Shown piece after piece: positions 7,171 to 43,118 of a stretch of DNA of 64,000 nucleotides; positions within the stretch are counted from its first letter, which is position 1, and every line of letters starts with the position of its first letter. This DNA is from Patescibacteria group bacterium (GTDB lineage Bacteria; Patescibacteriota; Patescibacteriia; Patescibacteriales; JBAZCA01). Made by a program: the position numbers and the translations under genes. The stretch spans positions 47,144 to 111,143 of the forward strand of contig JBAZUF010000001.1 of NCBI GenBank assembly GCA_041661505.1. The letters are read 5' to 3'. Below the pieces are notes generated by a model that had not been told where the DNA came from, searched no databases, and was given only the letters and a program-made list of their open reading frames with translations.

Positions 7171-8331
7171 ATGCAAAAAATTTCCCGGAATGTCCTGCTT
7201 TTGGGCCTGGTTAGCCTCTTAACCGACATCGGCTCGGAAATGGTTTATCCGCTTATCCCCGTAATTTTGTCGACCATGGCTTCGGCGCCTTTTGCCCTCG
7301 GCTTGATTGAAGGCGTTGCCGAAAGCACGGCCAGCCTCGCGAAATTTTATTTCGGTTATTTATCCGACAAAATCAAGAAAAGGAAAAGGTTTGCCGTTTT
7401 CGGCTATGGATTGTCTTTAGTCGGGCAGGCCGTCCTTGCCCTGGCCGGCAATTGGCCGCTGGTCCTGGCATCGCGCTTTATCAACCGCTTTGGCAAGGGA
7501 ATAAGGACCGCTCCCCGGGACGCCCTGATAAACGAAAGCGTGCCTAAAGAGAGGCTGGGGGCGGCTTTCGGCCTCCACCGGGCGATGGATACGGCCGGCG
7601 CTCTTATCGGCGTTCTTATCGCCTATTTTCTTATCGCCAAGTTTTCCTTTTCCGCCAGCCGAGCCATATATTTCTCATTAATCCCCTTATTGCTCGGCAT
7701 CGGCGCGCTTTCTTTGGTAAAAGAAAAACCAAAAGAGGAGGACGACAAAAAAATATTGCCCAGGCTGGCAATATCAATTTTTTCTAACCGCTTAAAATTT
7801 TTCTATCTTGTAAGCTTTATTTTCGCCCTGGGAAATTCGTCCAACCTCTTTCTCATCCTCCGTTCCTTAAATCTCGGGTTTAAGCCGGCAAGCGCGATAC
7901 TTCTTTACGGCTTATACAACCTTTTCCATGCCCTGTCCTCATATCCTTCGGGCCGGCTGGCTGACCGGCTGGGTTTCGAACGGGTATTGATGCTGGGCTA
8001 TTTCCTTTATGGGCTGGTTTACCTTTCTTTCTCCTTTGTCGACGGTAAAATTTTCACTATCCTATTATTCGCGGTTTACGGGCTTTACGCCGGTTTGACC
8101 GAAGGAGTGGAAAAAGCTTTTGTCGCCAATGAGGCTGGTCCGGAAAGGAAAGCTACGGCCCAAGGCGTCCACGCGACTATCGTCGGTTCTATGTTGTTTC
8201 CAGCTTCAATTTTGGCCGGCGCGGTCTGGCAATTTTTTGGGTTTACTTTCACCTTCTTATTCAGCGCTTCGCTCGCGTTCCTCTGCGCGATATTAATGAT
8301 CCGTTTAATGAAGATGAAAGCGCGAACTTAA
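7171..8331 (+). CDS. MFS transporter
   Basis: 386 aa, 12-TM topology, MFS signature-like GxxxDRxGRR-type loops (SDKIKKRKRF). Confidence 0.8.
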   Translation: MQKISRNVLLLGLVSLLTDIGSEMVYPLIPVILSTMASAPFALGLIEGVAESTASLAKFYFGYLSDKIKKRKRFAVFGYGLSLVGQAVLALAGNWPLVLASRFINRFGKGIRTAPRDALINESVPKERLGAAFGLHRAMDTAGALIGVLIAYFLIAKFSFSASRAIYFSLIPLLLGIGALSLVKEKPKEEDDKKILPRLAISIFSNRLKFFYLVSFIFALGNSSNLFLILRSLNLGFKPASAILLYGLYNLFHALSSYPSGRLADRLGFERVLMLGYFLYGLVYLSFSFVDGKIFTILLFAVYGLYAGLTEGVEKAFVANEAGPERKATAQGVHATIVGSMLFPASILAGAVWQFFGFTFTFLFSASLAFLCAILMIRLMKMKART

Positions 8332-8352
8332 AGCCCGCTGATAAAAAGGGGA

Positions 8353-8823
8353 TTACTCGGCGGAAAGAGCGCTGGCAAATTTTTTTATTTTATCTCCAAT
8401 ATCTTCCCTGGAAACTTCCAAAGTCTTAAAACTCAAAGTCGCGGCCGGCTTAACGCCGATAATTTCACCCATGCCGGAGAAAGCTTTTTCGTCGCCCGAA
8501 CCGCCCATGGTGCAAAAAAAAGCGGCTTTTTTTATCTGTCCCTTGTTTTTATTAAGGTACGACCGGATCGGGCTGGACATATCCCAGCCCCAAATCGGCG
8601 TGCCGACGATAACTAAATCGTAATCAGCCGGATTTTTCGCGAATTCAACCGGCGGCATGGCCTTTTGCATGGCTTCTTTGCCGGATAATAAATAGCCTAA
8701 AACCCCTTTTCTGTTTTTCGAATCTTTTATTTCATCGGTCTCGCAATTTAATTCTTGCGCTATCCTTTCGGCCGCTTTTTTAGTAATTCCGGTCCGGGAA
8801 TAATAAGCGATTAATGTTTTCAT
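8353..8823 (-). CDS. flavodoxin-like protein
   Basis: MKTLIAYYSRTGITKKAAE FMN-binding N-terminus; 156 aa. Confidence 0.75.
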   Translation of the reverse strand: MKTLIAYYSRTGITKKAAERIAQELNCETDEIKDSKNRKGVLGYLLSGKEAMQKAMPPVEFAKNPADYDLVIVGTPIWGWDMSSPIRSYLNKNKGQIKKAAFFCTMGGSGDEKAFSGMGEIIGVKPAATLSFKTLEVSREDIGDKIKKFASALSAE

Positions 8824-8866
8824 AATTTGTTGAATTAATTTTTAAATTCCTCAAACGCAATTAATC

Positions 8867-9580
8867 TTAATATTTTAACAGCTCTGATATTGTCGCGAAA
8901 ACATATCCTTTTTCTTTTAATCCGCTGATAATTTTCGGGAGGGCCTCTCTATCGGCCGCGCACTCTTTTTCACAAAATGGATGAAGTAAAATTATTGATC
9001 CCGGTTTCGCGTTTAGAAGGGTATTTTTAGTAATGAGTTCCGCGTTGCCGGAATAATTCGTATCCGGTTCAATGTCCCACATAATCGTTTTTATATTGTT
9101 TTCATTAAGATACCGCGGCAAACCCAATAATTTTTTTCCGTTTGGCGGGCGGAAGGTAATTTCACCCTGATAGCCGGAATCGCGGATAAGCTGGTTTGTT
9201 TTTTCTATTTCACTTTTAATGAATGCCTGGGATTTTAAGATCAAGCGCCGGTGCGAATAAGAATGGTTGCCCAGTTCGCTTCCTTGCCGGACAATTTCCT
9301 TGGCCTGATTGGGAAATTTTTCCAAAGATTGCCCAATGGCATAAAAAGTTGCCTGGACATTGTTTTCTCGCAATATTTTCAACACTTCATCCGTATATTC
9401 CGTAGGCGCGTCATCGAATGTTAAGGCCACTACTTTCTTGTCGGTATCTGCATGACTGGCAAGCCTTCCAAAAAACTGAAAAGTTCTTGACTTGCTAAGT
9501 TCAAAGAGACCGTAGGCGGTTATTGCCAGCACGGCCAAGACCAGCGCGCAAATTATATAAATTCTAATATTAATCTTCAT
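8867..9580 (-). CDS. polysaccharide deacetylase (NodB-type) with N-terminal membrane anchor
   Basis: VALTFDDAPTEYTDEVLKIL...ATFYAIGQ NodB motifs. Confidence 0.8.
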   Translation of the reverse strand: MKINIRIYIICALVLAVLAITAYGLFELSKSRTFQFFGRLASHADTDKKVVALTFDDAPTEYTDEVLKILRENNVQATFYAIGQSLEKFPNQAKEIVRQGSELGNHSYSHRRLILKSQAFIKSEIEKTNQLIRDSGYQGEITFRPPNGKKLLGLPRYLNENNIKTIMWDIEPDTNYSGNAELITKNTLLNAKPGSIILLHPFCEKECAADREALPKIISGLKEKGYVFATISELLKY

Positions 9581-10716: not shown

Positions 10717-10750
10717 AATGTTGAGTATTATTAGCTTTCTAATCTCTTCC

Positions 10751-10937
10751 TAACGGCTTCGGAATAAGCGAAGTGGCCGGAGGCATCCCGCCATCAGGCG
10801 GGAGGCCGGAAGGGCATTTCGCGTATTCCGAGTTAGGCGATGTCGCGAGCGGAGCGAGCGGCGAGCCTGACGAGGAAGAATTCCGAAGCCGTTAGGCCGA
10901 AAGGAAAGCGAGCGACAGCGAGCGATTTCGGCCTAAC
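10751..10937. repeat. 187-bp GC-rich structured repeat, copy 1 (two nested hairpins bounded by TAAC)
   Basis: 100% identical to 13227-13413 and 14542-14728; 15-bp terminal stem TAACGGCTTCGGAAT/ATTCCGAAGCCGTTA plus hairpin GTTAGGCCGAAA-N19-TTTCGGCCTAAC. Confidence 0.95.
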
Positions 10938-11151
10938 GTATCCGAATATGAGAAGTTTTTGCCCGCCTCCTTATTATATTATAATTGAAGAAAAGGGCAA
11001 AAATTTGGGTAAAAAATGAAATTCAAGTCCATAATTATATAAAAGAGAATTTCATTTTTTCCTCATATTCGGTGTTGTGCGATGTAAATTTTTTATCTCG
11101 TTGTTTATTGTACTAAATCTTAATGTTACTAAAAGAAAATTTGATTTTTTC

Positions 11152-11201
11152 GTTTTGTTTCAAAAAAAGAGGGGTAGGGGTGAATTTTTTTGAAACAAAA
11201 C
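11152..11201. terminator. 17-bp perfect inverted repeat with G-rich loop, immediately 3' of the KilA-N gene (bidirectional terminator-like)
   Basis: GTTTTGTTTCAAAAAAA-gaggggtaggggtgaa-TTTTTTTGAAACAAAAC. Confidence 0.6.
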
Positions 11202-11204
11202 TCC

Positions 11205-12053
11205 TCAGCGTATTTCTTTTTTAGATGATTCCAGCTTTTTTACTCTATCGTTTGTTAAAAGCGATTTCATCTGAATAATTGCAGTATTATTTAATTTCAA
11301 AATTCTATCTTTCTGCGAAAGTCCTTCGCGAATTAATAATGCGTTTATACTTTCAAGATTAGACAAAACTACCAACTGCTCAATTGAAGCATAATCTCGA
11401 ATATTTCCTTTTAACTTTGGATTCTTATCTCGCCACATTTTGGCGGTTATCCCGAATAGGGCAACATTGAGCAAATCCGCTTCATCGGCATATTTCATAT
11501 TAACCTGTTCTTTCGTTAATTCATGTGGAATTAGCTTTTCTTTTATGGCATCGGTATGAATTTTGTAATTGATTTTTGCCAGCGTTCTTTGAAGATTCCA
11601 TTCAAGCTTCAAACGGCTATTTTCATCTTGTTTAAGCCGCTGGAATTCAACTAATAAATATAGCTTGAATTCCGCGCTTACCCAGGAAGCGAACTCAAAC
11701 GCAATATCTATATGCGCGAAAGTGCCGCCTCCATATCTTCCAGATTTTGAAATTAAACCAATGGCATGTGTCTTTTCTATCCATTTTTGCGGCGGCAACA
11801 CAAAAGAATTGGCTCCAGCTTCATTTTTAAACTGGTCGAATTCGACCAGTTTAAAAACAGGATTATGCAGTCTTTCCCAAAGTCCTAGAAAATCAATCGT
11901 GCCACGAGTTCTCATCCAATTTTTTACGACATCGGCTGGAAATGCCGGGTTTTTGTGTCGCGCTATATCGGTCAAAGAAATATAATCACTATTATTTTTA
12001 GTAAAAGTGACTATTTCTATGCCTTCAACTTTTATTTTTTGTTTCTTTGCCAT
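11205..12053 (-). CDS. KilA-N domain protein (phage/mobile-element associated)
   Basis: N-terminus IKVEGIEIVTF..NSDYISLTDIAR matches the KilA-N/APSES-like DNA-binding domain; 282 aa. Confidence 0.7.
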   Translation of the reverse strand: MAKKQKIKVEGIEIVTFTKNNSDYISLTDIARHKNPAFPADVVKNWMRTRGTIDFLGLWERLHNPVFKLVEFDQFKNEAGANSFVLPPQKWIEKTHAIGLISKSGRYGGGTFAHIDIAFEFASWVSAEFKLYLLVEFQRLKQDENSRLKLEWNLQRTLAKINYKIHTDAIKEKLIPHELTKEQVNMKYADEADLLNVALFGITAKMWRDKNPKLKGNIRDYASIEQLVVLSNLESINALLIREGLSQKDRILKLNNTAIIQMKSLLTNDRVKKLESSKKEIR

Positions 12054-12121
12054 AAAGTATTAAGTTAGATTGAATTTAACTTAATTTTACCATATTTTTT
12101 ATTTTTTAAAAAAGAGGGTTG

Positions 12122-13066
12122 CTACAACTTTAATCCAAGTTTATATTTTCCATTAAATCTTGCAAATTCATAATCTTCACCAGTAAACATCCTTGCGAAA
12201 ACAGTTAATCTTTTTAACTCTGTCAAGAAATCTCTGCCGAATGTCTCTTTAAATAAAGATACTATTTCTTTATTTTCCATAATCCTTTCTCCTTCGATAA
12301 AGCCTCTTTTTAAGGCATTCCAAATTTGATCTTTCGGAAGTTTATTTTTTATGGCCAACTTCTTAATTATCGCATCGACTAACGTAACTTCAACACTGTA
12401 AGTAAATTTTTCCGGATTTATTTTTCTATTCCTTCTGTATAATTCCTTTTCTTCGTTTGACCAGCCAGAACTATTTAAATACTTTTCCAATATTTCTCTT
12501 GCTATTTTTTCAGTTACACCCTCATTAAATAAACCAAAATCATTGTTATGATAGCCAGACTGAATTTCTTTCGCATGCGCCTTATGATGACCAGATGGTT
12601 CCAGACCGACGCAAATATTTTTACTTATAGCATGAGCTTCTTCGTGTACGATAGTATGTAACATGTTCATTTCTTCAGTTCCGTAGGTTTCAGCCAGTCT
12701 CTCATAATAATATTTTTTTTCTGACTCTGGAGATGTGGGAATTGAACCAGGCGCCCTAAGCTTTATTAAATTATACTTACCGTCGTAATTACTATATGTT
12801 GCTTCGCTTGAAATAATTTTTTCAGGCCATATAAAATTACTTCTGTCTGCTGTAATTCCACATTTTTTTTCTAATTCAGAAAATAGGTCGCGCAATAAAT
12901 TAAAATCTATTTTATCAAAAAAACTTTCCCATTCGGGTAGGTTTTGTCGTCCCCACATTTCAACAAAATCGTCAATAAATTTTTGTTCTCTATTCCTAAC
13001 TTGTTCTTCGGGTTCCGCAATATCCTTTTCCAAAAAAATTTCTCGTTGATTTGGAATTTTTTCCAT
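12122..13066 (-). CDS. hypothetical protein with HEExH zinc-metalloprotease-like motif
   Basis: HTIVHEEAHAISK (HExxH) in a 314-aa otherwise unrecognised protein. Confidence 0.6.
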   Translation of the reverse strand: MEKIPNQREIFLEKDIAEPEEQVRNREQKFIDDFVEMWGRQNLPEWESFFDKIDFNLLRDLFSELEKKCGITADRSNFIWPEKIISSEATYSNYDGKYNLIKLRAPGSIPTSPESEKKYYYERLAETYGTEEMNMLHTIVHEEAHAISKNICVGLEPSGHHKAHAKEIQSGYHNNDFGLFNEGVTEKIAREILEKYLNSSGWSNEEKELYRRNRKINPEKFTYSVEVTLVDAIIKKLAIKNKLPKDQIWNALKRGFIEGERIMENKEIVSLFKETFGRDFLTELKRLTVFARMFTGEDYEFARFNGKYKLGLKL

Positions 13067-13226
13067 AATATTTTTGAAAATAGGAAATTAATCCGTTTTT
13101 TCTGCGATTCCAGGAGCAGAAAAAACACCTTTTACCCCTCTATAAAATAAATAAAAAATCAAATTTTCGTCGTGGTTCAATGCACAAAACCTGAAATTAC
13201 ACCCAAGATAAAAAATTTATTTCACT

Positions 13227-13413
13227 TAACGGCTTCGGAATAAGCGAAGTGGCCGGAGGCATCCCGCCATCAGGCGGGAGGCCGGAAGGGCATTTCGCGT
13301 ATTCCGAGTTAGGCGATGTCGCGAGCGGAGCGAGCGGCGAGCCTGACGAGGAAGAATTCCGAAGCCGTTAGGCCGAAAGGAAAGCGAGCGACAGCGAGCG
13401 ATTTCGGCCTAAC
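13227..13413. repeat. 187-bp GC-rich structured repeat, copy 2
   Basis: identical to copy 1. Confidence 0.95.
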
Positions 13414-13711
13414 GTATCGGGATAAGCGAAGTTCGCTTTCCGGGTTTATTGCTTTTAGCTTAACAATAAAAATGGCTAATGTAAATGCACTTATCGTGGA
13501 ATACGGACTAACAAAGGGAAGCGAATTTGGGAGAAGAAATTTTTCTTTCCTTAGCGTAAAAAATTTAAAAAACGAAAAATTTCTGAACCGCTTATCCCGT
13601 GTTAGACGACCCGAAGGGCTTGAGTTTCATTTTTAATAAAATGATTTTTTGGCTTGATTATAATTATCCTTTATGCTATTGTCATATGTCTTCCAATAAA
13701 CTCGAAAGGGG

Positions 13712-13915
13712 GTGAGTACATTCATGGAGGAAGGGCGTATCGCAGTGATTACAGTGGAATTCGTTAATCCCGATGAGCTAAAGAGAAGGGGTGAAGACGA
13801 ATCTTTGAAGAAACGGGGATGCCTCGGAACAGGAGGGCTGGGAAAATACATACCACTTCTCGCTGACTTTCCCGCGGACGTCAAAAGTGCGGTTCTTTTT
13901 ACCAAAAAGCAATAG
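13712..13915 (+). CDS. small hypothetical protein (67 aa from GTG; 63 aa from ATG 13724)
   Basis: AAAGGGGG RBS upstream; followed by a strong intrinsic terminator. Confidence 0.4.
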   Translation: MSTFMEEGRIAVITVEFVNPDELKRRGEDESLKKRGCLGTGGLGKYIPLLADFPADVKSAVLFTKKQ

Positions 13916-13940
13916 ATACTCCAATCAGGGCAAAAAAGCC

Positions 13941-13972
13941 GAAGACCAGACCGTAAATCTGGTCTTTTTTTT
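13941..13972 (+). terminator. rho-independent terminator (A-tract upstream makes it bidirectional)
   Basis: GACCAG-accgtaaat-CTGGTC followed by TTTTTTTT. Confidence 0.7.
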
Positions 13973-13998
13973 ATTAAAAAATTATTTTATTAAAAATG

Positions 13999-14130
13999 AA
14001 ATTTCGGCCTAACGTTTCCGAATATCGGAAGTTGCCGAAGCGTAGCGAAGGCAATTTGCGAAAAGTCCGAGCCGAGGACTTTTCCCGATATTCGGTGTTA
14101 GGCGAGGGTTCTTTTGCCCTTCCTTATTGT
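13999..14130. repeat. degenerate fourth site of the repeat family (solo right end ATTTCGGCCTAAC plus related palindromic insert)
   Basis: shares TTTCGGCCTAAC-GTtTCCGAATAT with the copy-1 right junction and ATTCgGtGTTAGGCGA with the repeat interior; 11-bp arms CCGAATATCGG/CCGATATTCGG. Confidence 0.6.
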
Positions 14131-14245
14131 AATTATACAAAAGAAAGGGGCAAAAGAAAGCGCAGCGACCCCTTGAGTTTTCTTTAAAAATATTTTTGCT
14201 TAAATGGTTGGGTGGCCGCCTGTCGAAGGAAGCCACCCTGTGATC

Positions 14246-14476
14246 TTACCAAAATTTGGAGCCCTCCAGGTTTTTCTTTTCTTTATACAGCTTCTTTAAT
14301 TCTGCTTCACGCACTTCTTCTCCTGTGAGGCTCTCATAATGAGCAATTTTTTGGTTCGTCTCGATAATGCGCTTGTTATTGGTTGAATTTGCGAGCCATA
14401 CTATAAGCACGCATAACATCACAAATACCAGAAAGGCGCCGGAGTAAAGTTTCGCTTCCTTTTTATCCACTTTCAT
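14246..14476 (-). CDS. small membrane protein
   Basis: 76 aa, one TM helix, Lys/Glu-rich tail. Confidence 0.4.
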   Translation of the reverse strand: MKVDKKEAKLYSGAFLVFVMLCVLIVWLANSTNNKRIIETNQKIAHYESLTGEEVREAELKKLYKEKKNLEGSKFW

Positions 14477-14541
14477 AATGTCCTCCAGTTGGGGTTGGTT
14501 TATCGAAAAAAAGCAAAAATATTTTTAAAGAAAATTTCGCA

Positions 14542-14728
14542 TAACGGCTTCGGAATAAGCGAAGTGGCCGGAGGCATCCCGCCATCAGGCGGGAGGCCGG
14601 AAGGGCATTTCGCGTATTCCGAGTTAGGCGATGTCGCGAGCGGAGCGAGCGGCGAGCCTGACGAGGAAGAATTCCGAAGCCGTTAGGCCGAAAGGAAAGC
14701 GAGCGACAGCGAGCGATTTCGGCCTAAC
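14542..14728. repeat. 187-bp GC-rich structured repeat, copy 3
   Basis: identical to copies 1 and 2. Confidence 0.95.
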
Positions 14729-14839
14729 TCGTCGTAAGACGAATAGTTGGGTAAATAATATTAGAAAATTGTATCTTATGCGTAATTATGGTAACATTCT
14801 GATATACTGACGGGCTACTTAAATGTTAGCATAAAAATA

Positions 14840-15661
14840 ATGGATGTAAAAGAACTCTTGGCTAAAATTGAAGAAGAGTTAAAGCTGAGGAATTACTCAA
14901 AAAAAACGATTAAGAGCTATATTGCGTGCTTAAACGATTATTTTAAATTTATTAAAATCGTTACGAAAGATCCCGACTTGGCCGCGATAAAAAAATTTCT
15001 CTTAGAAAAGCAGGACAGGGGACTTGCTCCGCAGACTATTAACCTTTACTTATACGCGGTAAAATACTTTTACTCGGAAATTACTAAGTGCCCGCGTAAA
15101 ATAAATATTAAATTCGCAAAAACTTCAAAAAAATTGCCGATTGTGCTATCCAGAAGTGAAATAGAAGGCTTGATAAACTGTTTGACAAATAGAAAGCATA
15201 AATTACTTATCGCCTTAGCTTACGGTGCGGGGCTAAGGTTAAGCGAGACATCCGCTTTAAAAATCAAGGACTTGGACTTAAAAGAACTAACCCTCCATCT
15301 AAAAGGCGCGAAAGGCAACCGGGACCGGATTACGATTGTTCCGGAAAAGTTAGTGCCGAAAATTTCCGAACTTATTGCCTTAAGGGATAAAAATGAGTAT
15401 ATTTTTTTAAGTAACCAGGGCGGAAAACTGTCCAGCCGGGCTTTGCAAAAAGTATTTGAAAAAGCGCTAAAGAGTGCTAAAATTGAAAAAGACGCTACTT
15501 TCCATAGTCTAAGACATAGCTTTGCCACCCATCTTTTAGAAAACGGCGTGGACGTGCGCTTTGTCCAGGAACTTTTGGGCCATAAAAATATAAGGACCAC
15601 GCAATTATACACGAAAGTTACCAACCCGATTTTAAAAAATATAAAAAGTCCTCTAACATAG
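14840..15661 (+). CDS. tyrosine site-specific recombinase/integrase (short, 273 aa)
   Basis: R...KGxKGNRDR...HSLRHSFATH...LGHKNIRTTQLYTKV catalytic signature; SAM-like N-terminal domain. Confidence 0.85.
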   Translation: MDVKELLAKIEEELKLRNYSKKTIKSYIACLNDYFKFIKIVTKDPDLAAIKKFLLEKQDRGLAPQTINLYLYAVKYFYSEITKCPRKINIKFAKTSKKLPIVLSRSEIEGLINCLTNRKHKLLIALAYGAGLRLSETSALKIKDLDLKELTLHLKGAKGNRDRITIVPEKLVPKISELIALRDKNEYIFLSNQGGKLSSRALQKVFEKALKSAKIEKDATFHSLRHSFATHLLENGVDVRFVQELLGHKNIRTTQLYTKVTNPILKNIKSPLT

Positions 15662-21640: not shown

Positions 21641-22226
21641 TCCAGGGTAAGCGGATAGTCGCTCCGCCCCGCATCTGCGGGGCGGAGAGGAAAGTCCGGA
21701 CTCCCGTCCCGTCCGCGTTTTGCAGGCGGGATGATAGCGGCAGTGGGTAACGCCCACCTATCCGCCCGGTAATCGGACGGATAAGGGAAAGTGTCTTGCC
21801 CGTACTGCGGGCAAGATCCTGCTTCCTTAATTCACATTAAGAAAGCAGGGCCACAGAGACAATACTAACCGCGGGGCGTTTACCTTGAGTGAAAAAAACG
21901 TACCGAAGGGCTTTAGGGCCTTTTGATTGCGCTTTAGTCTCGCTTAAGGTAATCGCTTCGCGGTGAAAGGTGAAAAGCTGCTTGGTGTTTTTGGTTATAC
22001 CGGATATCCATATAACTTTAAGCTACAAGTATTCCCGGCTGGTAACAGCCGCGGATGGCAAACCCTGCCTGGAGCAAGAACAAAGCCTCGCCCATATTTT
22101 GAGCGGGGTAAAAAGTAGTTCGCTTGATCCCGCGGGCAACCGCGGGGCTAGATAAATGGCTATCCATCCTTAGCTTCGCATTGAAGAAAAGGAGGACAGA
22201 ATCCGGCTTATAGCTTGCCCTGGAAT
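21641..22226 (+). ncRNA. rnpB: RNase P RNA, bacterial type A, unusually long
   Basis: GAGGAAAGTCCGGACTC (P4/CR-I), GGGTAACGCC, GGCTGGTAACAGCCGCGG...GGAGCAAG, ACAGAATCCGGCTTATAG (CR-V); P1 pairing CCAGGGTAAGC/GCTTGCCCTGG. Confidence 0.85.
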
Positions 22227-41792: not shown

Positions 41793-42149
41793 CATAATAT
41801 ACCAGTTAAAACTTTCCGCCGGCGGGCGGAATGATAAACAAGCGTCTGGCAGGGCCGAAAGGAGCGGCTATCTGGCGCGGACTAAATTATATGGAAAGGC
41901 TTTTTAAAACATTATTCTATTTGGCGTTAATAATTTTCTGCCTCTTAATCATCGGGGTATTCCTTTTGATAATAAAAATTTCTTTGCTATTTTTGGCTGA
42001 AATAAATTTCTTCGGCATCCATTTTACATTAGGCTAAGGGGAAGAGCTTTTCTGGAAGACCCCTGGAAAAGCCGCTTATCACTTCGTTTAACCTACATTA
42101 TGCGAAGTATTAACATCAATAAACACAGGGGTTATATCGCTTCTCTTTA

Positions 42150-43118
42150 TTGCTTATGCCGCCTAAACCAATAACAAAATATCTAGTTGATTACCTTGAA
42201 TTCCTTGAGATCGAAAAGGGCCTCTCTTCTAAAACCCAGGAGAATTATTCCCGCTTTTTATCAAGATTTTTTAATTGGCTCAAAGAGGGAGGGATCGGGG
42301 AACTACTCCCCTCTCAACTTACCTATGAACACGTCTGGAAGTACCGCGTATACATGTCCAAGTTCGCGGACAAAAAAACCGGAAAAGGATTAAAAAAATC
42401 CACCCAAAACTATTATCTAATCGCCCTGCGCGGAATGCTTGAATACTTTATTGAGAAAGATATCCCTTCCCTTCCGCCTTCAAAAATTAAGCTCGCTAAA
42501 AATAAAGGCGATAAAGAAATTAAATTTTTAAATCTAGACCAGGTGGAAACCTTGCTTTTAGCCCCGGCGATGGATTCCATACAGGGATTAAGAGACCGCG
42601 CCATTTTGGAAACCCTCTTTTCTACCGGCTTGCGGGTGGCCGAACTCGTTCGCTTAAACCGCGACCAGTTTAAAATGAAAAACCTGAAAGGAGACATTGA
42701 AATAACCGTAGTGGGAAAGGGCGGCAAGGTAAGAACGGTATATTTTTCCGACAGGGCGGTAGCCAGTCTTAAAAGATATTTGGAAGCCCGCAAGGATTTT
42801 GATCCGGCGCTTTTTATTAATTTCAAGCGCGGCGAGAGTAAAACAAACGCTTCCCGCCGATTAACGACAAGAAGCATTGAGGATATCGTAAAAAAATATA
42901 TATTGATTTCCGGTCTGCCGGTTATGGCTTCCCCCCATACCCTAAGGCATTCGTACGCTACTGATCTATTGACCCAGGGAGTCGATTTAAGGACAGTTCA
43001 GGAATTCTTGGGCCACAGGAACATCGCCACTACTCAAATTTACACTCACGTAACCAATAAGCGCTTAAGGGATATCCATAAAAATTTCCACGGCGGAAAA
43101 AAAATAAAAGACCGGTAG
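42150..43118 (+). CDS. Xer-type tyrosine recombinase
   Basis: R..GLRVAEL, HTLRHSYATDLL, LGHRNIATTQIYTHV. Confidence 0.85.
   Translation: MLMPPKPITKYLVDYLEFLEIEKGLSSKTQENYSRFLSRFFNWLKEGGIGELLPSQLTYEHVWKYRVYMSKFADKKTGKGLKKSTQNYYLIALRGMLEYFIEKDIPSLPPSKIKLAKNKGDKEIKFLNLDQVETLLLAPAMDSIQGLRDRAILETLFSTGLRVAELVRLNRDQFKMKNLKGDIEITVVGKGGKVRTVYFSDRAVASLKRYLEARKDFDPALFINFKRGESKTNASRRLTTRSIEDIVKKYILISGLPVMASPHTLRHSYATDLLTQGVDLRTVQEFLGHRNIATTQIYTHVTNKRLRDIHKNFHGGKKIKDR

Follow-up and report, generated by a model that had tools for sequence, protein, structure and literature searches.

Positions 10743–15661 of the 64,000-nt stretch analysed here (the window; contig JBAZUF010000001.1 of assembly GCA_041661505.1, from a Patescibacteria group bacterium) consist of an array of small gene units and the gene for a 273-aa tyrosine recombinase. 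From sequence we read this region, with a probability of about 0.6, as an integron-like capture platform that would work by single-strand exchange between folded hairpins and a primary double-stranded site beside the recombinase gene. An earlier note, drawn from the letters of the window alone, had described a recombinase at the right edge of the region pointing away from gene units separated by repeats, and this arrangement was confirmed, with the recombinase open reading frame (ORF; 14840–15661, + strand) divergent from the array and all parts located at, or within a few bases of, the coordinates given before. The array comprises six site-bounded units, ranging from 183 nt to 2.3 kb and holding 0–2 ORFs each: c1, c4 and c6 are ORF-less copies of a 183-nt repeat (T1), whilst c2, c3 and c5 bear cargo, respectively a 76-aa ORF, a 67-aa ORF, and the genes for an HEExH protein and a KilA-N/PDC-S22 protein. 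No tRNA or tmRNA attachment site was found near the island. Of the possibilities raised earlier, a recombinase/site system that is different and so far undescribed fits best: relatives conserve the arrangement, and no paper describing it, either for Patescibacteria or for recombinases that lack the integron-integrase-specific I2 insertion and accompany cassette arrays, was found in the searchable full-text literature, a body of text that leaves most subscription journals outside its coverage.

The recombinase and the adjacent primary site

Compared with NCBIfam profiles, the 273-aa protein scored highest on XerA (NF040815; 221.3 bits, cut-off 220), followed by the integron integrase model TIGR02249 (199.9 bits, below its cut-off of 265, the match falling into two stretches) and then by XerC and XerD (176 and 170 bits against cut-offs of 335 and 330), whilst on NF011946 (PRK15417) it reached 127.6 bits against a cut-off of 435. 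A search of solved structures (PDB) returned VchIntIA first (153 bits), then two XerA structures (140 and 130 bits), E. coli XerD (69 bits) and XerH (55 bits). The phmmer alignment with VchIntIA (2a3v) paired query residues 6–206 with chain residues 5–210 and query residues 198–272 with chain residues 243–317, leaving ~35–40 residues of IntIA (chain ~205 to 243) without a counterpart; the IntI-specific I2 insertion is therefore absent, as had been suspected in the earlier note. The C-terminal ...SPL is common to both proteins. Since the insertion is absent and the family cut-offs are missed, the system is not a canonical integron. Homologues of ~273 aa and ~70% identity number in the thousands among Patescibacteria. 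Smyshlyaev et al. (2021; PMC8138268) placed Xer-related recombinases of candidate phyla in a ‘Cand’ subgroup with a presumed Xer-substitute role, describing neither sites nor arrays for them, and the 273-aa recombinase very probably belongs to this subgroup.

The primary double-stranded dif-like site, equivalent to attI, lies at 14716–14745 (+), ~95 nt upstream of the recombinase gene, and consists of the left arm ATTTCGGCCTAAC, the central region TCGTCG and the right arm TAAGACGAATA. It had previously been overlooked, and is completed by the unique DNA that follows the last T1 copy. Its arms are inverted repeats of each other in a near-palindromic layout of 12–6–11 nt, matching the anatomy of a single 28–30-bp dif site (two 11-bp inverted arms around a 6–8-bp centre), and we take it to resemble E. 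coli dif. In related loci (denoted L followed by a number) the corresponding site, with the consensus ATTTcgnAtAAC-TcgTTt-TTATgCGAAnT, was found in 21 of 30 cases, 66–151 nt upstream of the annotated recombinase start. A conserved site beside the gene, whose left-arm boundary is shared by all junctions of the array, has the position expected of an attI-type site, and we infer that it is the point at which cassettes are inserted.

Between this site and the gene, a promoter-like sequence can be read at 14769–14797 (+; TTGTAT-17-TAACAT) with a right-arm half-site, CTTATGCGTAAT (14775–14786), in its spacer. The arrangement TTGTATnTTATgCGAA recurs upstream of the gene in most related loci, the half-site TTATgCGAA lying within the spacer of TTGTAT-17-TAnnAT in L008, L010, L012, L016, L020, L035 and others, and the half-site in this promoter-like sequence may be an autoregulatory operator.

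Hairpin sites, junctions and a proposed strand exchange

Units of the array end at hairpin sites of an element class that we term T2. On the + strand a T2 site comprises a left arm ending in AAC, four unpaired nucleotides (GTWT), an 11-bp stem, a variable interior, the return stem, a single nucleotide (T) and the right arm GTTnnGCGATGT. The T2 site of c5 (10925–11085, +) has its AAC at 10935–10937, the bulge GTAT, stems at 10942–10952 and 11062–11072, a T, and the right arm GTTGTGCGATGT at 11074–11085; that of c3 (13402–13612, +) has AAC at 13411–13413, the bulge GTAT, stems at 13418–13428 and 13589–13599, and the right arm GTTAGACGACCC at 13601–13612; and that of c2 (14001–14108, +) has the left arm ATTTCGGCCTAAC, the bulge GTTT, stems at 14018–14028 and 14085–14095, and the right arm GTTAGGCGAGGG at 14097–14108. 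Counted from the base after TAAC, the three elements span 10938–11085, 13414–13612 and 14014–14108, the first two directly following T1-A and T1-B. The ‘degenerate site’ near 14001, taken in the earlier note for a decayed repeat, is thus a member of this second class, and it is the diverged T2 hairpins, not the repeats, that occupy the role of recombination sites at cassette 3′ ends. Nor does the description of the sites as lacking spacer or extrahelical bases hold, since both T2 and the inner hairpin of the repeat have a conserved bulge of 4–5 nt versus 0–1 nt beside their AAC/GTT boxes.

T2 sites were sought on both strands of ~1 Mb (the fetched loci plus the window) as AAC, 4 nt and an 11-bp stem followed at a distance by the return stem, 1 nt and GTT, with at most one stem mismatch and no requirement for the arm motifs. 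This yielded 28 hits against 1–7 in ten shuffles. Arm motifs accompany 15 of the hits in Patescibacterial loci, each of which lies, in one shared orientation, on the upstream side of the recombinase. This asymmetric-loop scan replaced a gap-free AAC...GTT palindrome scan, which had found only T1 and did no better than shuffles. In a 14-member alignment of both T2 ends, 9 of 11 stem pairs change on both sides, and the arms, of which only AAC/GTT were selected by the scan, are 73% paired, with double changes at seven arm pairs. Values as high were seen in none of 500 shuffles, and pairing fell to 28–46% when the 3′ partner was displaced by 1–3 columns. Stem pairing was itself a search criterion, so that the 100% pairing of the stems is partly by construction; arm pairing, one-sided location and fixed orientation are not. 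Aligned over their full length, T2 interiors contain a semi-conserved GAAGTT, a TTGCC/GGCAA helix and AATTTGGGAGA; they span 75–590 nt and can hold an ORF. No T1 or T2 copy was found elsewhere in the 64-kb window.

T1 emerged from a repeat search that returned three direct repeats of a 207-nt family (10751–10957, 13227–13433 and 14542–14748; 96–100% identity). The unit truly shared by them is 183 nt long and identical in T1-A (10755–10937, +), T1-B (13231–13413, +) and T1-C (14546–14728, +), the last of which abuts the primary site; the three uniform, structured repeats of the earlier note therefore stand, at 183 nt and not the 187 bp given there. A contig of another assembly (L001) stops exactly at the first bases of T1-C. 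T1 is GC-rich within AT-rich surroundings and folds stably on both strands (z = −6.9 on the + strand relative to shuffled sequence), and its 41-nt core occurs nowhere else in the window, with 0 of 100 shuffles giving a match. In T1-A the 5′ arm GGCTTCGGAAT (10755–10765) pairs perfectly with 10880–10890, after which comes GTTAGGCCGAAA; an alternative pairing gives an inner, bulged hairpin of T2 type (10759–10775 with 10815–10831) ending in the right arm GTTAGGCGATGT (10832–10843), and the unit closes with the left arm ATTTCGGCCTAAC (10925–10937). The second 3′ arm is perfectly complementary to T1's own circular junction (10880–10902). With two alternative 3′ arms available to it, the 5′ arm can give a bulged site with one and a perfectly paired site with the other. 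Five lineages retain this dual design, each with T1 directly adjoining the primary site; the architecture is the same in L004, L035, L029 and L027. Formally T1 is a cassette, starting after TAAC and ending with its own left arm, and it behaves as an ORF-less one; its conservation exceeds that expected of a random ORF-less cassette, and it may be a selfish mini-cassette of high activity or else belong to the insertion platform as an accessory.

It is improbable, and to our minds slightly more so than the double-stranded alternative considered below, that T1 and T2 are miniature inverted-repeat elements, structured RNA genes or terminators unrelated to the recombinase. The composition and the stable two-strand fold of T1 would suit such elements, as would the conserved motifs inside T2 and its location at ORF 3′ ends, where terminators lie. 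As a known RNA family, however, both were rejected, with no Rfam match at gathering or permissive thresholds. Their terminal boxes, moreover, are the arms of a double-stranded site kept at a fixed distance from the recombinase in many genomes, and they are confined to one side of that gene and to one orientation.

The boundaries of the units are exact. In the window, in relatives and in metagenome contigs every T1 copy and every T2 site starts directly after TAAC, each T1 being also terminated by ...CCTAAC, and what follows TAAC is T1, T2 or the central region of the primary site, and nothing else. The left arms belonging to c5 (ATTTCACTTAAC, 13219–13230, +, with the junction after AAC) and to c2 (ATTTCGCATAAC, 14534–14545, +) conform to this, as does the distal boundary of the array, which we read as a degenerate left arm, CTCTTCCTAAC (10743–10754, +), ending in the TAAC junction; it matches the genome's own left-arm variant ATTTCGGCCTAAC at ~10 of 13 positions, and repeat identity starts directly after its AAC. 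Identity between copies always ends right after TAAC, and the central region goes with the DNA to its right, which, for a tyrosine recombinase, puts the cut in the exchanged + strand where the left arm meets the central region. Central regions vary among T2 sites and differ from that of the primary site, which disfavours a full two-strand exchange and favours exchange of one strand. The spacing within T2 is likewise asymmetric: the left ends have a 9-nt spacer between arm-like segments in all 15 aligned members and the other side has 6 nt, so that the + strand, if folded, would form a dif mimic with a 3-nt bulge, whilst the right end, read on the opposite strand, shows the canonical 11–6–11 spacing.

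These features bear on whether the array could be a chain of double-stranded Xer sites in alternating orientation, recombined by ordinary two-strand exchange with no folding, as in the pdif modules of Acinetobacter plasmids, short gene modules that are bounded by Xer-type sites (PMC7399989). Each T2 end does contain two arm-like sequences, the right one with 11–6–11 spacing on the opposite strand, and site orientation alternates along the array, as it does in pdif modules. Such a chain is nevertheless improbable: in every member the left-end spacer exceeds that of a double-stranded site by 3 nt, central regions differ between the would-be partner sites, the inner halves of both ends co-vary instead of keeping a consensus, and all junctions fall at one arm boundary only. 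The pdif sites, for their part, are double-stranded XerC/D sites with 6-bp spacers, found on plasmids and lacking co-varying long hairpins.

On the reading that we prefer, the capture platform, the recombinase would bind the double-stranded dif-like primary site upstream of its own gene, and T2 would fold once the + strand, which serves most cassette ORFs as template, becomes single-stranded. The fold would set the left arm ATTTCGnnnTAAC opposite the right arm GTTnnGCGATGT, adjoining the 11-bp helix with a one-sided bulge of 3–4 nt, and would thereby mimic the primary site. The 273-aa enzyme, as the presumed actor, would then cut the + strand after ...TAA(C) in both partners and swap one strand pair, leaving an intermediate to be resolved by replication. 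A cassette would land directly to the left of the primary site with its hairpin distal, its own left arm becoming the new left arm of the primary site, and repeated insertion would stack cassettes leftwards, divergent from the recombinase gene. The order predicted in this way (old left arm, T2 ... ORF(−) ... own left arm, central region and right arm, recombinase) equals the order observed, whilst loss of a cassette would join a left arm directly to TCGTCGTAAGACG.

The system would thus be functionally integron-like, and at the level of the site reaction it resembles the integration of CTX-type integrative mobile elements exploiting Xer (IMEX). As in integrons, a primary double-stranded site lies by the recombinase gene and small, mostly single-gene, mostly co-oriented cassettes are stacked; the cassette end is an imperfect palindrome conserved in structure over sequence, in which unpaired bases give the hairpin its polarity; the outer boxes are AAC/GTT with the junction at AA|C on the template strand of the cassette ORFs; and there are ORF-less and repeated cassettes and orphan or defence-like cargo. 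Three of the four cargo ORFs of the window are on the minus strand, and the hairpin site stands at the 3′ end of mostly minus-strand ORFs. In the published account of attC × attI recombination one strand pair is exchanged and replication resolves the product (PMC4792948). Set against attC, whose R″/R′ boxes read RYYYAAC/GTTRRRY, T2 has co-varying AAC/GTT boxes, a second helix, unpaired bases and a variable interior, in a geometry that departs from that of attC. The earlier description of the region as integron-like is supported by the cassette-like array tied to an adjacent recombinase, the primary site beside the gene, the hairpin sites and the AAC/GTT boxes; its identification as a canonical sedentary chromosomal integron (IntI, attI, attC) is not supported, and we give it scarcely any credence. 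The divergent recombinase, the boxed hairpins, the orphan cargo and VchIntIA as best solved relative all speak for such an integron, but the recombinase lacks I2 and falls short of TIGR02249 and PRK15417 by the scores given above. The hairpins differ as well: attC is described with a central unpaired spacer and extrahelical bases in the L box (PMC5027507), unlike the asymmetric 4-versus-1-nt bulge beside the R box and the uninterrupted 11-bp second helix, free of extrahelical bases, seen here. Further differences are the plain dif-like 12–6–11 palindrome of the primary site, interiors of 75–590 nt that may contain an ORF, and a conserved 183-nt T1 abutting the primary site in several lineages. 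Host range differs too, since the arrangement covers Patescibacteria and Bacillota, whereas in the IntegronFinder 2.0 survey canonical integrons are nearly absent from Firmicutes (Bacillota) and Patescibacteria are not mentioned (PMC9024848); a study of archaeal integrons required the IntI domain (PMC9668308).

For the CTX phage, inverted dif-like half-sites ~90 nt apart are described as folding into a forked hairpin, after which one strand pair is exchanged and replication resolves the product (PMC3442271). Here, similarly, inverted dif-like half-sites (~90 nt or more apart) fold to a dif mimic with a bulged centre, the T2 arms match the primary site, and successive elements can stack at the site. 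Unlike CTX-type IMEX, the units of 0.18–2.3 kb hold no phage or replication genes, a single XerA/IntI-like protein is encoded beside the site in place of XerC plus XerD, and the arrangement is conserved across a superphylum and not carried by one phage family.

Relatives, differences in cassette content and the second recombinase

The whole design recurs in Patescibacterial relatives with unrelated sequence. In L004, whose recombinase is ~70% identical, three near-identical T1-type units are present, the last abutting the primary site and the others followed by T2, and in L029 (Gracilibacteria, 48% identity) the pattern T2 – ORF(−) – T1 repeats and ends at the primary site. The gene downstream of the recombinase varies: in the window it is murC, 1 nt from the recombinase ORF, and in relatives an aminotransferase gene, lepA or prfA. 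Upstream, by contrast, relatives invariably have a succession of small ORFs, most of them lacking Pfam hits and most encoded on the opposite strand. The hairpin stands at the 3′ end of short ORFs, mostly opposite the bulged strand, in the window and in L016, L029, L024, L075 and L019. Products of the relatives' cassettes include HD, cupredoxin, DpnI, NUDIX, ART and ArsP proteins. In L006 a site-bounded unit (7200–9351) contains an ArsR-type regulator, a zinc-ribbon protein and an ArsP permease in the orientation opposite to that usual for cassettes, and resembles a resistance cassette of several genes with expression of its own.

Populations differ in cassette content. Of 27 related contigs, all from species-representative genomes, 17 end at most 600 nt upstream of the gene and only one ends so close downstream, and contigs L001, L005, L008, L015 and L017 begin at the TAAC junction itself; breakage upstream of the gene is what would be expected if the DNA left of the junction were repeated or polymorphic. 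Other assemblies of the same species gave no array-free or rearranged allele, their contigs breaking at T1 and reproducing segments of the window. Variation came to light solely in metagenomes of the Joint Genome Institute (JGI), where an exact-match scan with the last 30 nt of T1 gave four contigs, all from one sample (Ga0172379). Two of these are 100% identical to c5 and to c2–c3 of the window. The third (L096) reads T1, then 2.9 kb absent from the window with its own T2 site, a hairpin with the conserved loop described below and a strong promoter, then T1; the fourth (L097) has T1 followed by two T2-bounded units absent from the window. Arrays with identical segments thus differ in cassette content. 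On the reverse strand of L097 (116–701) the T2 arms are 586 nt apart and enclose a small ORF with a TTGACA-17-TATACT promoter, either a hairpin whose interior carries cargo or one element inserted inside another.

Recombinases that are 37–41% identical and likewise lack the insertion lie, in several other phyla, next to hairpin arrays that share these arms and this bulge: an Ignavibacteriota metagenome-assembled genome (MAG; L038, 9–10 sites), the complete genome of Desulfitobacterium sp. Sab5 (L067, seven sites), a Bacillota MAG (L049, three sites), and members of the Spirochaetia (L039, three sites), Spirochaetes (L041, two sites) and Nitrospirae (L060, two sites). The L038 recombinase scores 250.7 bits on TIGR02249, again in two stretches. 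In most of these non-Patescibacterial loci the array is downstream of the gene, L041 being the exception. The cassette ORFs of L038 and L067 are co-directional with the gene, the bulged strand being once more the template strand of the cassette ORFs, and in L067 a sequence resembling the primary site lies between gene and array. Not every homologue of ~37% identity is linked to an array: the best homologues on Clostridium plasmids sit beside IS91-family transposases, and on the C. tagluense plasmid NZ_CP077609.1 (L099, 8959–10993) a 37%-identical homologue is directly followed by an IS91-family transposase gene.

Taken together with the Patescibacterial loci, these arrays raise the possibility, which we advance tentatively and would rate somewhat below even odds, of a previously unrecognised multi-phylum class of capture platforms, with short I2-less XerA/IntI-like recombinases, a dif-like primary site and bulged hairpins, near-universal in Patescibacteria and found also in Bacillota, Ignavibacteriota, Spirochaetota and Nitrospirota. 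Such a class may represent the pre-I2 state from which canonical integrons arose, or may have solved the same problem independently. The descent of integron integrases is traced to Xer-like enzymes that gained the I2 helix (PMC4792948, PMC7790495); if our reading is right, an I2-less relative that stacks hairpin-ended cassettes at a dif-like site is either a living intermediate or a sign that I2 is not required, and either outcome would make the origin of integrons experimentally testable. A near-universal platform would also be a major route of gene acquisition in Patescibacteria, whose genomes are tiny and whose gene gain is poorly known. Cargo in these arrays is orphan, defence-like and resistance-like (PDC-S22, DpnI, an ars operon, NUDIX, ART). 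It is probably under-represented in MAGs, because the arrays break metagenome assemblies just upstream of the recombinase, and integron-finding software, which requires the IntI domain, would miss this class, including its members in Bacillota, a phylum regarded as almost devoid of integrons (PMC9024848).

The window encodes a second tyrosine recombinase, a 322-aa protein of XerC/D type (42150–43118, +) that at ~70% identity across Patescibacteria is as conserved as the 273-aa one. Its gene lies in the conserved synteny alr – FtsQ-like – x – xer – M23-peptidase, whilst the neighbourhood of the 273-aa gene varies. A 28-bp dif-like site, ACTTCGTTTAA-CCTACA-TTATGCGAAGT (42082–42109, +), is located 41 nt upstream of the 322-aa gene, with arms nearly matching those of the array sites; the centre of the primary site is 1 nt longer. 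In the one relative that was read, L102, a site of this type is absent upstream of the 67%-identical homologue. GC skew in the window only tracks gene orientation and gives no placement of origin or terminus.

This second enzyme is central to the main rival explanation, that the 273-aa protein, alone or together with the 322-aa one, is the chromosome dimer-resolution Xer, the sequence at 14716–14745 is dif, and the cassettes are IMEX that, like the CTX phage, enter dif by means of a folded hairpin, so that the platform would be parasitised housekeeping machinery and no dedicated capture system. We regard this as unlikely. In its favour, the protein keeps ~70% identity and a fixed length in thousands of Patescibacterial homologues, and its gene is translationally adjacent to housekeeping genes (murC; prfA, lepA and others in relatives); the primary site is built like a classical dif, occurs also in L010, where no array is seen, and has arms nearly equal to those of the site by the XerC/D-type gene. 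With a separate, equally conserved XerC/D-type recombinase in cell-division synteny, however, the 273-aa protein need not be the dimer-resolution enzyme, and its own gene neighbourhood, unlike that of the 322-aa gene, is not conserved. The longer central region also sets the primary site apart from that at 42082–42109. Furthermore, the same recombinase with arrays occurs in Desulfitobacterium and Ignavibacteriota, which belong to phyla expected to have XerC/D.

Lone Xer genes with a cognate 11-spacer-11 site immediately upstream are familiar from XerS/difSL of streptococci and XerH/difH of epsilonproteobacteria, where a single-copy site serves dimer resolution. The present module is like these in its lone Xer-type gene with a site upstream, and differs in that XerH reached only 55 bits in the PDB search; we know of no hairpin cassette arrays described beside XerS/difSL or XerH/difH. 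Archaeal XerA/dif provides the best NCBIfam model, with similar length and domain make-up, and the palindromic arms found here suit a homodimer; here, by contrast, the host is bacterial and a cassette array is present, and the score is barely at the cut-off. To our knowledge XerA is a dimer-resolution enzyme without arrays.

Several observations weigh against the capture-platform reading. The I2 domain of IntI is described as the innovation that enables recombination of folded single strands (PMC7790495, PMC4792948), and this recombinase lacks it. Its constant length and ~70% identity across very many Patescibacteria are housekeeping-like, and with a dif-like site of near-identical arms beside the 322-aa gene, either enzyme, or both, may act on the array. 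Two relatives with long upstream flanks have no credible T2, L010 giving no hit and L042 a single hit without arm motifs. A simple cassette model does not account for T1, with its three identical copies, two alternative 3′ arms and retention across classes. Cassette ORFs also vary in orientation, and some cassettes bring promoters of their own. The evidence consists of assembled sequence and includes neither circular-cassette nor empty-site junctions, and part of the T2 stem pairing is, as stated, built into the search.

Cassette cargo and neighbouring features

The inventory of genes and hairpins in the earlier note was recovered in full. Gene 1 of c5 (12122–13066, −) encodes the HEExH (HEEAH) protein, a near-orphan without a Pfam or NCBIfam hit whose only homologues among 5.8 billion proteins are two distant ones (31% and 28% identity), neither of them in an array. 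Gene 2 (11205–12053, −) encodes the KilA-N protein (Pfam KilA-N, E 5.5e-16; PHROG 2657), which over residues 1–280 of 282 matches the PADLOC candidate defence family PDC-S22 (E 1.3e-134), and on the strength of this full-length match c5 probably carries an anti-phage gene. The cargo of c3 (13712–13967, +) is a 67-aa ORF (13712–13915) followed by a terminator-like hairpin (13941–13967), and that of c2 (14246–14476, −) is a 76-aa predicted membrane ORF with no family hit.

KilA-N domains are common in phages, and the region had been considered, as one possibility, a degraded prophage-like island; that a prophage or phage-like element was integrated here by the recombinase is, in our judgement, very improbable. 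Searches of family libraries with the unit proteins gave no hits to replication or phage families, no other phage gene, structural ones included, is present, and the DNA shows no similarity to 50,697 phage records. The island is, moreover, split into six site-bounded units, its KilA-N protein matches a candidate defence family over its full length, and recombinase and site are retained by genomes whose cargo is quite unlike that of the window.

A promoter scan found 12 promoter-like sites against 10.4 expected, and neither promoter nor terminator counts exceeded those of shuffles, so that no common promoter can be claimed. The earlier view of the cargo as promoterless-looking does not hold for all of it: the c3 ORF reads towards the recombinase, and two metagenome cassettes have strong sigma-70-like promoters of their own.

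Two further motifs accompany the T2 sites. Between the T2 site of c5 and the first cassette ORF, a hairpin at 11152–11201 presents the loop GAGGGGTAGGGGTGAAT (11169–11185), and the loop motif GAGGGGT(n)AGGGGTGAAT is shared with unrelated cassettes in L004 (2109–2126), L029 (8478–8494) and L096 (2776–2793), in every case placed after the T2 right arm and ahead of the first cassette ORF; this hairpin may serve as a terminator or bind a protein. The second motif, CTTCCTTATTGTA in this or a closely similar form, lies 10–25 nt past T2 right arms in the window (~14121–14133), in L004 (~1105–1120), in L097 and in L096. Outside the island, the window also contains a bacterial type A RNase P RNA at 21643–22226 (+), which at 584 nt for a model of 367 positions has large insertions.

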